This document shows, piece by piece, positions 50,751-56,008 of a stretch of 56,493 nucleotides of DNA. A model generated the notes under the pieces. It made no database searches. It saw only the letters and a list, made by a program, of their open reading frames with translations, and was not told where the DNA came from. The stretch spans positions 1 to 56,493 of the forward strand of contig JAVZGQ010000005.1 of the NCBI GenBank assembly GCA_038998585.1, read 5' to 3'. The position numbers and the translations under genes were made by a program. The number at the start of each line of letters is the position of its first letter. The stretch's first letter is position 1. Origin of the DNA: Candidatus Aenigmatarchaeota archaeon (GTDB taxonomy: Archaea; Aenigmatarchaeota; Aenigmatarchaeia; CG10238-14; SCSR01).

Positions 50751-50838
50751 TGCGGGTGGTAGAGTCTATTCTCATCAGCTACCTCCGAAATCATCGAAAT
50801 CATTCTGGAACGGTTCAATCATTGCTAGTCTCTACCAT
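50751..50838 (-). other. 23S BHB intron, 88 nt, after ~2306 (H84), contains C/D-box motifs
   Basis: CGGG/CCCG, bulges UC|A and CA|A, stem UGGUAGAG/CUCUACCA. Confidence 0.9.
50775..50822 (-). ncRNA. Putative intron-encoded C/D box guide RNA
   Basis: AUGAUUGA - 11 nt - AUGA - UUU - CGAUGA - 12 nt - CUGA. The D guide pairs 11/12 with 23S 50608-50619. Confidence 0.72.
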
Positions 50839-51206
50839 GACCCGGATGAGCTGACCTTTGGGCACCCTCGATCCTTTACCGAGGGTGTACCGCCCCAGCC
50901 GAACTGCCCATCTGACGCTGTCCTCTTTCGAGTTAGCGGTAAGGTTGCGAAAGGGTAGTGTTACACTTTCCTCTCAGCTTTTGGCCGAAGCCTAAGCCTA
51001 TAGCGAGTCCTACCTACTCTATGCAGTCACAACCTTACCACAACATCAGACTGCAGTAAAGCTCTACGGGGTCTTCGTTTCCCACATGAGGTCTCCGGCC
51101 TATTCACCGGAAAGGCGAGTTCACTGGGTCCCAGCCCAGGACAGTGGGGAAGTCGTTAAGCCATTCAGACGGGCCGTCATTTAAACGGCAAGGGATTACG
51201 CTACTT

Positions 51207-51253
51207 ATACCGCCCAAGGCGGCGATCATCAAAATCATATGACCGCCTCAGGT
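51207..51253 (-). other. 23S BHB intron, 47 nt, after ~1927, with D'/C' motifs
   Basis: GUCG/CGGU, bulges UA|A and AU|A, stem CCUGAGGCGG/CCGCCUUGGG, loop AUGA-UUU-UGAUGA. Confidence 0.87.
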
Positions 51254-51471
51254 TACGACGGTCAGAGTTACCGCCGCCGCTCTGCGGGGCTTCTTCCCGT
51301 TGGACCGGGCTTTCACACACCGCAGCTGGGCAGGCATCAGAGACCGTACTCATCCTTTCGGACTTGCGGTCTCCAGCGTTTTTGTTAAACAGTCGCTTCC
51401 CCCTTGTCACTGCGACCTGCTCTCCCTTGCGAGAGAACAGGCACCCCTTCTAGCGAACATACGGGGCCAAT

Positions 51472-51526
51472 TTCGGTTGAGTAAAGATCTTACCCAATTT
51501 TATATAATTAATCGACCTTCACCCAT
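51472..51526 (-). other. 23S BHB intron, 55 nt, after ~1677
   Basis: CGGC/ACCG (1 mismatch), bulges AA|A and AA|A. Splicing restores CGGCAAAUUGG. Confidence 0.83.
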
Positions 51527-51589
51527 TTGCCGATTTCCCTAGACTGGGTTCTCCCAACACACCTTTGCCTTCTCGGCAAGCCTACCTGT

Positions 51590-51621
51590 TTCCCGGAAGT
51601 ATAGTTTAAACTTATACTTCT
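51590..51621 (-). other. 23S BHB intron, 32 nt, after ~1615
   Basis: ACCG/CGGG, bulges AC|A and AA|A, stem GAAGUAU/AUACUUC. Splicing restores AACCGACACAGG. Confidence 0.85.
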
Positions 51622-53321
51622 GTCGGTTCTCGGTACGGTCATGGGGAATCCTTCCAGTTTTCCTTTTCACGGGCTCCAGGAATCAGTAGAACTTCCCATA
51701 CGGGAAGCCATTCCTGTATTCATGAGCTTCTCCTCATTAAGAGACTCCACTCACTTCAACAGTTAGCTTACGTCCACCTATCCCGAAGCGTCAGAAAACT
51801 GGCTTGCGTTGCCGCACGTATCCCCATGGCAGTCGAATATTAACGACTTTCCCTTTCGAGTGCTTCGGTTAAGAACACCCTTAGGACCGGCTAACCGCCA
51901 GCTGATCAACATTGCTGGCAAACCCTTAGGCTTCAGGTGGTTAGGATTCTCGCCTAACTTTGCTGTTACTTTCGGCAGGATCTTCAATCCTACACGGTCC
52001 ACCCCTGCTCACACAGAGGCTTCTGTCCATGCAGGACGCCTCCCTACTACTGCTTTCGCAGTCTAGGGTATCGGTAGCTAGCTTAGTCCCTTCCATTTTC
52101 AGGGCCTAAACTCTCGGTAGGTAAGCTGTTACGCACTTATTATCTGATGGCTGCTTCTAAGCCTACAGCCCTACTGTCTGAGAGTTCAGACACCCTTCTT
52201 CGTTTAGCTAGCATTAGGGACCTTAACCCTAGGTTGGGTTGTTCCCCTTTCGAGTGTCGAGCTTACCCCAACACCCTCACTCCGGTCTTCTAAGGCGGCA
52301 ATAGATTCGGAGTTTGACAGGAAGGCTGAACCTTTCGGTCCTTGACCAACCAATCAGTAACTCTACCCTATTGCCTACCTCTGACCAGGCTGCACTGACA
52401 TGCATTTGGGGAGGAACCAGCTATCGCCAGGTTCGTTAGGCTTTTCACCACTAACCCCAGGTCACCCGAGCGAATTGTGACTCAGCACCGGTAGCAGACT
52501 TCCATCCCCCTTTCGAGGGACTTCGTCTTACCCAGGGTTAGATCACCTGGCTTCGGGTCTTGTCCCAGTGATTTCAGGCACTTTCATACCCCGCTCCTCG
52601 CTCTTGCGAGCTGCGAGCTTGTCGCTTTCGCTTAGGCTACCTTGCGAAAGCAAGTTAACCTCACCACTGAGACAAACTCCCTGCCCCGTGTTTCCGCACG
52701 GACGACACGACCCTGTAATCTTCCTCTCTTACTCTCCTTTCGGATTTCATTCGAGGAAGAACCTTTCAGGCCATGTCTGACTATCACCACTTGGTTTCAA
52801 GCTCTTTTCACCCCGCTTTCGCGGTACTTTTCAGCTTTGTGTCACCATACTAGTTCGCTATCGGACTTCGGGAGTGTTTAGAGTTGGATGTTAATCCACC
52901 CAGTTTCCCACTTCCTATCCAGGAAATGGTACTCAGGATACCTGCCATCTTCCTTCCAGCCTTCCCTTACGGGGCTATCACCCTCTAAGGCACAGCTTTC
53001 CAGCAGATTTCAGGTCAGCTGGTTAGGAGGGGCACAGGTCCTACAACTCCACATCCTGTTTGGCTCTTCGCCAACCAGTTCGGTTTGCCCTCTACCGCTT
53101 TCGGTCGCCCCTACTAACGGCATCTCGATTGATTTCTCTTCCTGCGCCTACTAAGATGCTTCAATTCAGCGCGTTCCCTCTCCTTTCGGAGTTGGCCGAG
53201 GCCAACGATTCGCATTGATAGATCCTGGGATCTAAACCTGCGTGCGGTTACCCCAGGCTTATCGCAGCTTGCCACGTACTTCTTCGGCTCCGAAGCCAAG
53301 CTATCCACCAAGTGGCATAGC

Positions 53322-53361
53322 ATTGTTAGGCCTTAGTGACCTCCTTGATCCTATGGTAGTG
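53322..53361 (-). other. 5' arm of 23S pre-rRNA processing stem (BHB)
   Basis: Complementary to 49937-49976. Confidence 0.9.
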
Positions 53362-53605
53362 TCATTAATATGGTTTCAAATAGACAGTTCGCTCTTCATC
53401 TTTTTTCAGGCGAAAAAATTTTATCATCAACCTCCACTCTTCACCCCTTACTTTTGATAAGGAGTTGCATGTAGCTTGCTCACAAGGTGTCCACATCCTC
53501 ATCTTCTATCAGCACAAAAGGACAAGCTCATCGCTAAATAAAAAAGCCGATGCTTTAATTAAGCGCACATACCGACACCGGCAAAATAATAAGTTGTATT
53601 TTATA

Positions 53606-53620
53606 TTTATAAAGATTTCG
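53606..53620 (-). promoter_or_regulatory. Putative BRE/TATA promoter for the 23S gene
   Basis: Minus strand CGAAATC-TTTATAAA, about 25 nt before a switch to a more GC-rich leader at ~53581. Confidence 0.55.
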
Positions 53621-54185
53621 AATTATTAATAATTTTATTAAATTTTTAAATTTTCTTATCGATCAGCAAATGAAGCAAAACCCCTAAAGACCCGAGAAAA
53701 AATGTTTATACAAATCATTTGGAGAAAAAAATTAGAAAGCTTACGATAAAAAGGAAAAAAGAAAATAATAGACAAAATATTTCGGTGAATGAAATTCCTT
53801 TTTCTTGTTTGTATAGATAAATCTAGATTTCTCAAAAACAAAATAGTAAATGTAAATTGGTCCAAACAAAAGAAGGAAAAGTTTATTAAAAATCGAAGAA
53901 TTTTTTCTTTTGAGTATTTCATTAGACTGTCAAAATCAGGAAGAAAACTCTCATAAACAAAAGGGATTGTTATAATAATTATAACTGGAAGAATTTCTAT
54001 TTAAAAAACAAATTGACCAAAATCAAAAAAGGTATTAATGGAAATGAAATTCTCTTAGAGATCCAAAGCGTGAAGGATAAATGTTCTTTAATTTCAAGCC
54101 AAAGTTTTTCAAACGAAAATTTCAAGAACTTTAATTCTCTTGGTAACTCAAGATCAAACGAGATGTTCAACCCACTTTTAATTTA

Positions 54186-54803: not shown

Positions 54804-54848
54804 TGATGACGTCCGCTTACTAGGGATTCCGGCTTCACGAGGACGAGT

Positions 54849-54896
54849 TTGCTGGAGCACTAGCTTTAATAGTAAAAATTTATCTACTAGTACTCT
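54849..54896 (-). other. 16S BHB intron, 48 nt, after ~1318
   Basis: GCUG/CAGC, bulges UA|A and AA|A, stem GAGUACUAG/CUAGUGCUC. Confidence 0.9.
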
Positions 54897-55155
54897 TACA
54901 GCCCTCGATCTGAACTGGGCGCGCTTTTAGGGGATTCGCTTCCCCTTTCGGGGTTGCATCCCTTTGTGGCGCGCATTGTGCGTCGCGTGTGGCCCAGGAC
55001 ATTCGGGGCATACGGACCTACCGTCGCCCACTCCTTCCTCTGGCTTATCGCCAGCGGTCTCCCATGAGTGCACTCTCTCTGAAGAGAGGGTTAGCAACAT
55101 GGGATGTGGGTCTCGCTCGTTAACGCACTTAAGCGCACGCCTCACGGTACGAGCT

Positions 55156-55444
55156 TTATCGTCCTGCCAGCCTCCTTATAATTTCTATTTTAATATTTTT
55201 TAAAGATCATCAAGCTAACTACTCAATTTTTTGATAATTCTTTCTTTTTATTTTGCAAAACATATGAGAAACTTCTTAAATTCTAATTAACTCTTGAATA
55301 TATGTTCATCAGACCCGCTGAACTATTGTATAAACATACTTATCCATCATTTTGTTGAGTTTTTAGTTTTTTGTATTCAATCGAATCTAATTTACAGTAG
55401 AATCTAATTTATGTAGTTTTCTATGTTTTGGAGACTAACAGGAT
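55156..55444 (-). other. 16S BHB intron, 289 nt, after ~1066, AT-rich, no intact ORF
   Basis: AUCG/CGAU, bulges UC|A and AA|A, stem UCCUGUUAG..UCC/GGAGGCUGGCAGGA. Confidence 0.9.
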
Positions 55445-55454
55445 GACGATGGCC

Positions 55455-55513
55455 TTGTGCAGGAGTGTCACTCTTTAAAAATAACATGGGTTAACTTTAG
55501 AGCGACATTCCTT
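55455..55513 (-). other. 16S BHB intron, 59 nt, after ~1056
   Basis: GUGC/GCAC, bulges AU|A and AA|G, 14-bp intron stem. Confidence 0.9.
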
Positions 55514-55643
55514 ATGCACCACCTCTCGGCTTGTCTGGTAAGCCCTTCAGACTGACCCTCATCCTGCCGTCGGCCCTGGTAAGATTTCCGGGGTTGAATC
55601 TAATTGAACCGCAACGCCCACCCCTTGTGTGCTCCCCCGCCAA

Positions 55644-55761
55644 ATCGGGGAGAAGAGCATCCGTTTCAAAATTTTTAATTTTATCTACTAGCAATCATTT
55701 CTTATTCCCCAAAGTAGATTCTATCTGATTTAAAGTTAATTTTAGTTTCGGGCTCTTCTCT
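55644..55761 (-). other. 16S BHB intron, 118 nt, after ~919
   Basis: AGGG/CCCG, bulges AA|A and AU|U, stem GAGAAGAGC/GCUCUUCUC. Confidence 0.88.
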
Positions 55762-55772
55762 TTCCCTTAAGT

Positions 55773-55816
55773 TTGGTGTACAGGGAAAGCACAGCCAATT
55801 CTAGCCATCCCTGAAG
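55773..55816 (-). other. 16S BHB intron, 44 nt, after ~908
   Basis: GGUG/CACC, bulges AA|C and AA|A, stem CAGGGA/UCCCUG. Confidence 0.88.
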
Positions 55817-55927
55817 TTCACCCTTGCGGGCATACTCCCCAGGCGGCCCCCTTAACACCTACGCTCCGGCACTACAAGCTCCCGAGAAGCTTGCAACACC
55901 AAGGGGGCATCGTTTACGGCTAGGACT

Positions 55928-56008
55928 TTCCCGCACGAGTTAGGAAATCCTAGCTGGAAATTTGGGATTTTCTTCATATCTTTGATCAGAAGATACCCAA
56001 TCTCGTGT
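55928..56008 (-). other. 16S BHB intron, 81 nt, after ~801, with D'/C' motifs
   Basis: CCCG/CGGG, bulges GU|A and AA|A, stem CACGAG/CUCGUG. Confidence 0.9.

Follow-up and report, generated by a model that had tools for sequence, protein, structure and literature searches.

The window analysed here is the whole of a 56,493-nucleotide (nt) contig (JAVZGQ010000005.1 of assembly GCA_038998585.1, our C5) from the 574-kb, 88% complete genome of a Candidatus Aenigmatarchaeota archaeon (~33% G+C), which in size and gene content resembles DPANN archaea. It carries, on the minus strand, a ribosomal RNA (rRNA) operon whose genes are interrupted by introns that lack an open reading frame (ORF). The large-subunit (LSU, 23S) gene occupies 49966-53332, and the small-subunit (SSU, 16S) gene runs from the contig end at 56493, where its first ~254 nt are missing, to a true 3' end at ~54470; Rfam places it at 54657, owing to an intron that immediately precedes helix 45. 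The genome encodes fibrillarin, Nop5 and L7Ae, all above Pfam cut-offs, together with the splicing endonuclease EndA and the ligase RtcB. The sole-copy counts given below refer to the 88% of the genome that is assembled. An earlier reading of this DNA, here called the original prediction, proposed that several of the introns contain box C/D guide RNAs aimed at their own host rRNA. After the analysis presented below, we consider it likely that the pre-rRNA carries at least four complete C/D guide RNAs, two of them in introns (S7 and L4) and two in the spacer upstream of 23S (ITS-1 and ITS-2), which would direct the predicted methylation of rRNA from the same operon.

The four elements and the rRNA segments addressed by their guides are listed here, the predicted site being in each case the nucleotide opposite the fifth guide residue, counted upstream from D or D', and the E. 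coli equivalents coming from pairwise MAFFT alignment to K-12 rrsH/rrlH:

54519..54632, minus strand: S7, bulge-helix-bulge (BHB) intron of the 16S 3' minor domain, after E. coli 1492 (insertion relative to intron-less relatives, RNAfold)
54551..54600, minus strand: S7 small RNA (sRNA) core, 50 nt (top scan match; model R2, E=1.8e-18)
54697..54706, minus strand: target of the S7 D' guide in 16S helix 44, GTCAAGCCAA; fifth-nucleotide position 54703 = E. coli A1408
54472..54479, minus strand: target of the S7 D guide at the 16S 3' end, TCACCTCC (anti-Shine-Dalgarno); fifth-nucleotide position 54476 = E. coli C1535
50751..50838, minus strand: L4, intron of 23S domain V, after E. coli 2306 (MAFFT insertion, relatives)
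50772..50822, minus strand: L4 sRNA core, 51 nt (scan, 0/1000 shuffles; model R1, E=2.1e-17)
50889..50898, minus strand: target of the L4 D' guide in the 23S P-loop, CTGGGGCGGT; fifth-nucleotide position 50895 = E. coli G2251
50613..50621, minus strand: target of the L4 D guide, AGCTACCTC; fifth-nucleotide position 50618 = E. coli U2438
53480..53534, minus strand: ITS-1, C/D sRNA between the spacer tRNA and the 23S processing stem (scan 27.0, 1/1000 shuffles)
50430..50439, minus strand: target of the ITS-1 D guide in the 23S A-loop, AGGTGCCCAC; fifth-nucleotide position 50436 = E. coli U2552
53376..53430, minus strand: ITS-2, second spacer C/D sRNA (scan 27.3, 1/1000 shuffles, conserved in relatives)
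50320..50329, minus strand: target of the ITS-2 D guide in 23S helix 93, AGACAGTTCG, directly 3' of intron L6; fifth-nucleotide position 50327 = E. coli A2600

Sequence comparison leads us to regard the insertions in the two genes as real introns. MAFFT alignment with intron-poor relatives places seven of them in the LSU gene, after E. coli positions 1615, 1675, 1927, 2306, 2477, 2597 and 2659, and seven in the SSU gene, one of which resolves by eye into two introns (~55816-55774 and ~55761-55644) with 12 exon nt between them. The SSU sites thus lie after 801, 907, 919, 1056, 1066, 1317, 1366 and 1492, and the total of 15, together with the coordinates of the five introns that had been singled out as guide carriers, agrees with the original prediction. 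All the insertions fold with paired termini in RNAfold, and the junctions of S1 and S7 form a 4-bp helix between 3-nt bulges (by eye), which in S7 is seen as a 4-bp helix with a 3-nt bulge (TAA) on one side and an AAAG loop. At every insertion site, relatives have these conserved genes uninterrupted, and since the decoding centre, helix 93 and the sarcin-ricin loop are among the places affected, the insertions cannot stay in a working ribosome. In public sequencing runs, which were compared as contigs only, from many organisms, at >=90% likeness and with uncovered parts and depths being uninformative, RNA-run contigs skip L5 exactly (X4, X9, X17) and skip L4 (X4 and X17, with 50749 joined to 50839) and L2 (X9) within a few bases, although intron-less relatives may be the source of all these joints. 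The DNA run X1 shows none of them.

For the search of guide RNAs, we scanned both strands of the whole genome with a generic C/D score, in which the G-A of each box is required, canonical weights are applied, spacers measure 10-15 nt and the linker 1-45 nt. Even though the rRNA operon represents less than 1% of this search space, it holds four of the top 6 distinct matches, with S7 ranking first (28.3) and ITS-2 (27.3), L4 (27.1, fourth) and ITS-1 (27.0) all within those six. These four elements carry the boxes C, D', C' and D in this order on one strand, with the G-A dinucleotides kept, and their guide spacers measure 12 nt, except for one of 11 and one of 13. Kink-turns and kink-loops need the pairing of C position 6 with D position 1, and of C' position 6 with D' position 1, and by eye both box pairs of the four elements follow this rule, using four pair types. 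Among 1000 dinucleotide shuffles of each segment, the observed full four-box score was reached once for S7, never for L4, and once each for ITS-1 and ITS-2. The motif TGATGA, moreover, appears six times in sense and never in antisense within the 1197 nt of introns, against a shuffle mean of 0.82 and with 0/500 shuffles reaching six. This control divides the five introns to which guides had been attributed: S7 and L4 stand out as complete elements conserved across genera, whereas S1 (257/1000 shuffles) and S4 (913/1000) are ordinary, and L3, without the full architecture, has a half score reached by 127/1000 shuffles. A strict canonical double-guide pattern (RTGATGA, CTGA, TGATGA, CTGA) has no match in the genome, and its relaxed form only two implausible ones, which is no proof of absence because the boxes are variant. 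A terminal-stem scan for free-standing sRNAs gave three matches in the genome and three in its reverse; it is insensitive, and the number of free-standing guides cannot be derived from it.

The S7 core reads C (ATGAAAG), a 12-nt guide, D' (CTGA), a linker, C' (ATGATGA), another 12-nt guide and D (TTGA). The D' guides of relatives match the same helix 44 site over 9-11 bp (by eye), and in the D guide the core GAGGTG is invariant, with the full GGAGGTG present in 24/26 aligned relatives. This core is kept in the loci of nine relatives, though among them the intron occupies three separate positions within the 3' region of 16S. Model R2, built from alignment A2, has matches in 40/151 genomes of the class, including 13/14 of family f1, and exactly one in the genome studied here, namely the S7 intron copy. 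Half of 30 S7-type loci lie in the 16S 3' region, at no fewer than four insertion points and with two of the genomes coming from other families. The remaining 15 are within tRNA introns; in 10 cases the gene is called tRNA-Ser(tga), with introns of 62-74 nt. At these 15 loci ARAGORN calls no tRNA by default and one at each when long introns are allowed, a permissive setting under which many calls in our own genome look unreliable. Genome G010, without the 16S intron, has a tRNA-intron copy instead. The guide register is the same in rRNA-borne and tRNA-borne copies (by eye). Among 28 copies, the C' to D spacer measures 12 nt in 22; from C to D', 15 copies have 12 nt, eight have 13 nt and five have 10 nt, the last of which probably reflect a parsing problem.

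The L4 core follows the same layout, with C ATGATTG, a 12-nt guide, D' ATGA, a linker, C' ATGATTT, a 12-nt guide and D ATGA. Its D' guide matches the P-loop over 10 bp including two G-U pairs, and in 27 relatives only C or T is found opposite the two G residues that follow (by eye). The guide/target covariation across genomes that the original prediction had proposed as a check is seen in the D guide: G010 shows A in its target and T in its guide, in place of the G and C of the others; in G022/G027, C replaces T in the target and G replaces A in the guide; and G156 shows this latter change independently. In distant free-standing copies, the pairing extends over 7-8 bp only. Eleven relatives have an intron at the L4 site of their LSU gene, and both guides are kept in ten of them. 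Model R1, which is sequence-only and was built from ten copies (alignment A1), finds 55/151 genomes of the class at E<=0.001, in many families, and its single match in our genome is again the intron copy. When the context of 30 L4-type loci was assigned by eye, 11, all from family f1, proved to be inside the LSU gene and 19 to be free-standing, these with a terminal stem and AT-rich upstream sequence; G022 and G027, which have no intron at this LSU site, carry the RNA elsewhere in the genome. In four genomes, G006, G026 and G009 (LSU L018, L010, L013) and G018, a 31-33 nt intron splits the D target (GAAAAGCTAC, intron, CTCGGGG), so that its splicing would there have to precede any pairing of the guide, which puts the two events in order.

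It is in this family that the boxes themselves provide evidence. Parsed by spacing, C and C' are ATGA plus three nt, and D' and D are NTGA or NNGA, with 12-nt spacers from C to D' in 24/27 copies and from C' to D in 26/27. Covariation was scored on alignment A3, with 29 L4-type copies from locus references. Position 6 of box C and position 1 of D are paired in 27/29 (UA 12, AU 7, GC 6, CG 1, GU 1), position 1 of D' and position 6 of C' in 28/29 (AU 15, UA 6, CG 4, GC 3), and the next pair outward in only about half. The resulting score of 0.775 compares with a shuffled mean of 0.231, is reached by 0/500 shuffles and exceeds that of every slid control. The pair that covaries is the one that closes the non-canonical stem of the kink-turn, next to the sheared G-A pairs.

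The two spacer guide RNAs lie inside the range covered by the original prediction, which had not flagged them. Both elements are found upstream of the LSU gene in nearly all relatives listed, other families included (by eye), and ITS-1 in 12 of the 14 sequences listed, our own among them (also by eye). Relatives' ITS-1 D guides pair perfectly with the A-loop over 8-12 bp, and guide and target change together, GGGCACCTG facing CAGGTGCCC in G006 and GGACACCT facing AGGTGTCC in G010 and G017. Two genomes of family f4 have both conserved spacer guides within one RNA (by eye).

Three of the six predicted sites coincide with sites already predicted or known in other organisms. E. coli 23S has three ribose methylations, and these include Gm2251 and Um2552. 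Archaeal C/D predictions, as given in the consulted part of the source, include G2251 in three species, U2552 in five, and 16S A1408 in S. acidocaldarius and N. equitans (PMC4644070). Both intronic families are, in addition, distributed in a complementary way, since the genomes searched have either an intronic copy or a free-standing or tRNA-borne one, one per genome. This speaks for intronic copies that serve the same function as free-standing ones.

Several observations weigh against this picture, either as a whole or in some of its parts. Our organism's own guides match rRNA over 8-10 bp, which is not above background, as the rRNA holds competing runs of 9-12 bp including G-U pairs; the weight of the targeting case therefore rests on the relatives, and the original claim of complementarity, unconvincing from this sequence alone, is sustained by them and by the compensatory changes in L4. 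The own ITS-1 D guide has one central A-C mismatch, the ITS-2 D guide has a competing 12-bp match with two G-U pairs at ~50907, and the D' guides of both spacer RNAs vary among relatives, with no clear target. U2438, A2600 and C1535 could not be tied to known methylations. The boxes of the four elements depart from RTGATGA/CTGA, box C being ATGA plus three variable nt and the D-type boxes NTGA or NNGA, and no Rfam C/D family reaches its cut-off, the nearest being SNORD36 at ITS-2 (26.7 bits, cut-off 30), with the archaeal sR2 (16.4) and sR18 (16.0) also sub-threshold at S7; such sub-threshold matches place the elements outside curated families and are no argument against membership of the C/D class. 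In the S7 family, C' and D' are near-invariant and the register of box C shifts between host contexts, so that covariation supports the L4 family only, the box pairs of S7 hardly varying. Regarding splicing, the exon-intron junction of L4 is at best a relaxed BHB (by eye), the contig joints are a weak hint because intron-less relatives could supply them, and no joint bears on S7, those at 54519-54698 and 54739-54817 being uninformative. The counts over related genomes are not independent samples, and several context assignments were made by eye. Finally, methylation at all the sites is a prediction.

The remaining introns of the original prediction, and the tRNA introns that share their design, are the following:

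55928..56008, minus strand: S1, BHB intron after 16S 801, with a D'/C' half element at ~55973-55989 (MAFFT, relatives)
51207..51253, minus strand: L3, 47-nt intron after 23S 1927, with a D'/C' half element (MAFFT, relatives)
55156..55444, minus strand: S4, 289-nt AT-rich intron after 16S 1066, with no supported C/D element
C2:44245-44352, C2:28861-28977, C4:18486-18634, C1:90305-90415, C1:108326-108433, all outside the window: tRNA introns with the half module (Trp, two Leu, one uncertain, Glu)

What S1 and L3 offer is half of a guide RNA. In S1, a 4-nt loop separates CTGA from an AGAT-ATGA box, and the guide matches 8 bp of the exon at AGATACCC (56013-56020), 9 nt upstream of the splice site, in which the fifth position is E. 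coli U793. Introns at the same site in the family f5 genomes G252, G256 and G257 keep a second guide and a TTGA D box, and beside them the own intron has the look of a half-decayed copy. In L3, a 3-nt linker lies between a D'-like ATGA and a C'-like TGATGA, with an 8-bp match (one G-U, by eye) to the upstream exon at TGACCGTC (51257-51264) and a fifth position at E. coli C1920, and the motif is kept in 3/4 relatives with an intron at this site. In both, the guide claim holds to the extent of this half element and its exon match, neither rises above shuffles, and the case comes from relatives and from tRNA introns. Five of the own tRNA introns have a D'-loop-C' module (NTGA, 4-6 nt, AGATGA or ATATGA), whose upstream segment pairs with the anticodon loop so as to place nucleotide 34 at the fifth position (both by eye), as in the classical tRNA-Trp intron. 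By analogy with this module, the half elements of S1 and L3 may be functional. The kink-loop-like motif alone is, in any case, frequent genome-wide (76 matches, with 23 in the reversed genome). As for S4, nothing in it is above chance, no ORF of note was found in its 289 nt, and the introns at this site in the two relatives listed are 37 and 56 nt long and box-less. An identical piece of S4 (55218-55430) is present in RNA run X9 at a depth of 8.6, for which RNA or DNA origin are both possible.

In the mechanism that we propose, L7Ae, Nop5 and fibrillarin would assemble on the guide RNAs, either on the nascent transcript or after excision, and the splicing endonuclease and RtcB would release, and probably circularise, the introns. 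The 2'-OH groups of 23S G2251 and U2438 (L4), 16S A1408 and C1535 (S7), U2552 (ITS-1) and A2600 (ITS-2) would be the predicted sites of methylation. Since each RNA bridges two exon segments that flank it or lie near it, the guide RNAs may also aid local folding. In S1 and L3, a D'/C' half would present one guide to the exon just upstream, in the same design that the own tRNA introns would use for nucleotide 34. The intron-borne guides would derive from free-standing and tRNA-intron copies, or exchange with them, and a guide RNA would therefore move between host genes as a BHB intron.

A related possibility, which we advance only tentatively, is that guide-RNA BHB introns are themselves mobile: the excised circular ribonucleoprotein would dock on its target, reverse-splice nearby and be copied into DNA. 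This idea would fit with the S7-type RNA, whose insertion points, no fewer than four, fall within a stretch of ~30 nt of 16S and in every case between its two targets, with the occurrence of this RNA in tRNA-Ser introns of other families, and with the alternation of the L4-type RNA between free-standing and intronic forms. Mobility of C/D sRNAs through circular intermediates has been proposed for "mobile C/D box sRNAs" (PMC3491384, seen in part).

The same RNAs could be read in other ways. They might be L7Ae-binding kink-turn RNAs that pair with exons but mainly chaperone folding or processing, without directing methylation; they might, for example, act by holding helix 44 and the 3' end of 16S, by shielding the anti-Shine-Dalgarno sequence up to the time of splicing, or by presenting the BHB. 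That each RNA bridges two exon segments near its own position, and that the S7 D guide covers the anti-Shine-Dalgarno sequence, would fit such a role, as would the pairing of the S1 and L3 guides within ~10 nt of the splice site, where they could simply build splice-site structure, and the lack of known counterparts for U2438, A2600 and C1535. A pure chaperone, however, would not need the strict 12-nt spacing and constant register by which G2251, U2552 and A1408, positions of universal or recurrent methylation, come to face precisely the fifth guide nucleotide; the guides are also preserved in free-standing orthologues, and fibrillarin and Nop5 are retained in a 574-kb genome. We regard a mainly chaperoning role, without methylation, as unlikely.

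Lower still we rate the idea that boxes and complementarities are chance features of AT-rich introns, or decaying, non-functional relics of inserted sRNA genes. The shuffle results of S1, L3 and S4, the background level of own-sequence guide matches, the frequency of the kink-loop-like motif and the loss from the own S1 of parts kept in other genomes all agree with it. For S7 and L4 it is already disfavoured: the scores of these two and of both spacer RNAs are reached by at most 1/1000 shuffles, boxes and guides form invariant columns while linkers and flanks vary across genera, boxes covary, guide and target compensate, and these are the only copies of their families found in the genome. Hardly credible, in our view, is that the insertions are expansion segments kept in the mature rRNA, with the C/D-like parts acting as structural kink-turns of the ribosome. 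Some junctions, such as that of L4, are indeed not canonical BHB motifs (by eye), but the insertions would break the decoding centre (1492), the 790 loop, the sarcin-ricin loop (2659) and helix 93 (2597), at sites where relatives are uninterrupted. Furthermore, the S1 and S7 helices are flanked by 3-nt bulges, the joints at L5, L4 and L2 appear in contigs of RNA runs and not of the DNA run, and the same RNA sits in tRNA introns elsewhere. The methylation guides proposed here thus remain our preferred interpretation.

Small ORF-less introns are known from other archaeal rRNAs, the mini-introns of Thermoproteales being a further case. The comparisons with published systems made from here on refer to those parts of the cited papers that were consulted. 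ORF-less BHB and group I introns of archaeal rRNA resemble ours as multiple small introns at conserved 16S/23S core sites, and group I insertion positions are listed near LSU 1923-1931, 2593 and SSU 1498, but only the carriage of homing endonucleases is ascribed to them there (PMC6125680), whereas here two of 15 introns hold complete guides and two more hold half elements. A close precedent is the euryarchaeal pre-tRNA-Trp intron (Clouet d'Orval et al. 2001, cited in PMC7994747), likewise a BHB intron with a C/D guide that targets its host exons, and the own tRNA-Trp intron has this same design for nucleotide 34 (by eye). Contrary to that system, the host is here 16S/23S rRNA, the targets lie 50-130 nt away instead of a few nt, and several such RNAs share one operon. 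In Nanoarchaeum equitans, a tRNA-Met intron sRNA and dicistronic tRNA-sRNA transcripts represent a similar case of a reduced genome with guides on introns or tRNA-linked transcripts (PMC3491384); rRNA introns or spacers are not reported there as hosts, whereas the guide hosts seen here across related families are free-standing genes, tRNA introns and rRNA introns. Free-standing archaeal C/D sRNAs agree with ours in predicted target nucleotides, fifth-nucleotide rule, double-guide layout and 12-nt spacers, but they are independent genes with canonical RTGATGA/CTGA boxes (PMC4644070), whereas here only ATGA/NTGA is conserved, the sixth position of box C covaries, and the RNA is nested in the rRNA transcript. 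Eukaryotic intronic small nucleolar RNAs (snoRNAs) are likewise guides made out of introns after their excision, from host transcripts that have a link to ribosome production; theirs are spliceosomal introns of messenger RNA (mRNA) or non-coding hosts followed by exonucleolytic trimming (PMC7994747), ours BHB introns of the target rRNA itself, which the tRNA splicing endonuclease would release.

The genomic contexts listed for archaeal C/D sRNAs in PMC7994747 do not include rRNA introns, as far as the part consulted goes, and in PMC6009581, by its consulted part, rRNA introns were removed before the target search. No description of C/D guides in archaeal rRNA introns or spacers was found in a literature search for which "C/D" is unusable as a query and supplements were unseen, in line with the original prediction, which knew of no such multi-intron arrangement. 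In the descriptions found, C/D guides aimed at their own host are confined to tRNA introns.

A number of further features accompany these systems. Intron L7 (50230-50266, minus strand) lies inside the sarcin-ricin loop, after E. coli 2659, and intron L6 (50330-50390, minus strand) at 2597/2598, directly adjoining, on its 5' side, the segment that the ITS-2 guide targets. The own S6 intron (54745-54800) is without boxes; at the same 16S site, G010 and G017 (L035, L036) have a longer, different intron, in which the boxes are the canonical TGATGA/CTGA and the guide can pair with GGTGGTGCAT in helix 34 of 16S (by eye). The spacer tRNA (54186-54270, minus strand), called Arg(gcg) by ARAGORN, is by eye a tRNA-Ala(TGC) whose D-arm region contains a short insert that may be a non-canonical intron. 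In contigs of RNA runs X4 and X9, the 3' and 5' flanks of 23S are joined (53315/53334 to 49977/49968, with 9-36 letters between), a joint that circular pre-23S intermediates would be expected to show once the processing stem has been cleaved.

Outside the window, the genome-wide scan gave other C/D-like matches at C6:17983 and at C1:32573, the second inside the RtcB gene. This gene, on C1, also has two frame-breaking 19-nt inserts (~32349-32367 and ~32424-32442), and excising each of them restores a conserved motif, GYGF-PIGGV and GGIGF-DINCGVR; judged from these motifs, the splicing ligase's own mRNA would contain two candidate mini-introns. A CTGA-loop-AGATGAT element (C1:138276-138291, minus strand) immediately precedes a tRNA-Ser(TGA) gene in which the called intron measures only 12 nt; the element could be a leader-borne guide or a chance match.

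The original prediction also held that the ORF-less introns persist because they supply guides. As 11 of the 15 show no guide, this can apply to four at most; it is plausible for S7 and L4, each being the only copy of its guide family in an 88%-complete genome, so that losing the intron would mean losing the guide. ORF-less rRNA introns, for which no role was previously known, would thus include at least two that are the sole carriers found of guides for universally important rRNA sites. Placing guides inside the transcript that they modify would couple transcription, modification, folding and splicing stoichiometrically, a sensible arrangement for a 574-kb genome, and the models built here can annotate variant-box C/D RNAs across the class. 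The three host contexts of one guide family form a natural series for the movement of guide RNAs between genes, which bears on the possible origin of intronic snoRNAs. If the introns are indeed mobile, they would offer a concrete origin for ORF-less rRNA introns near the binding sites of their own guides, and an archaeal parallel to intronic snoRNAs.

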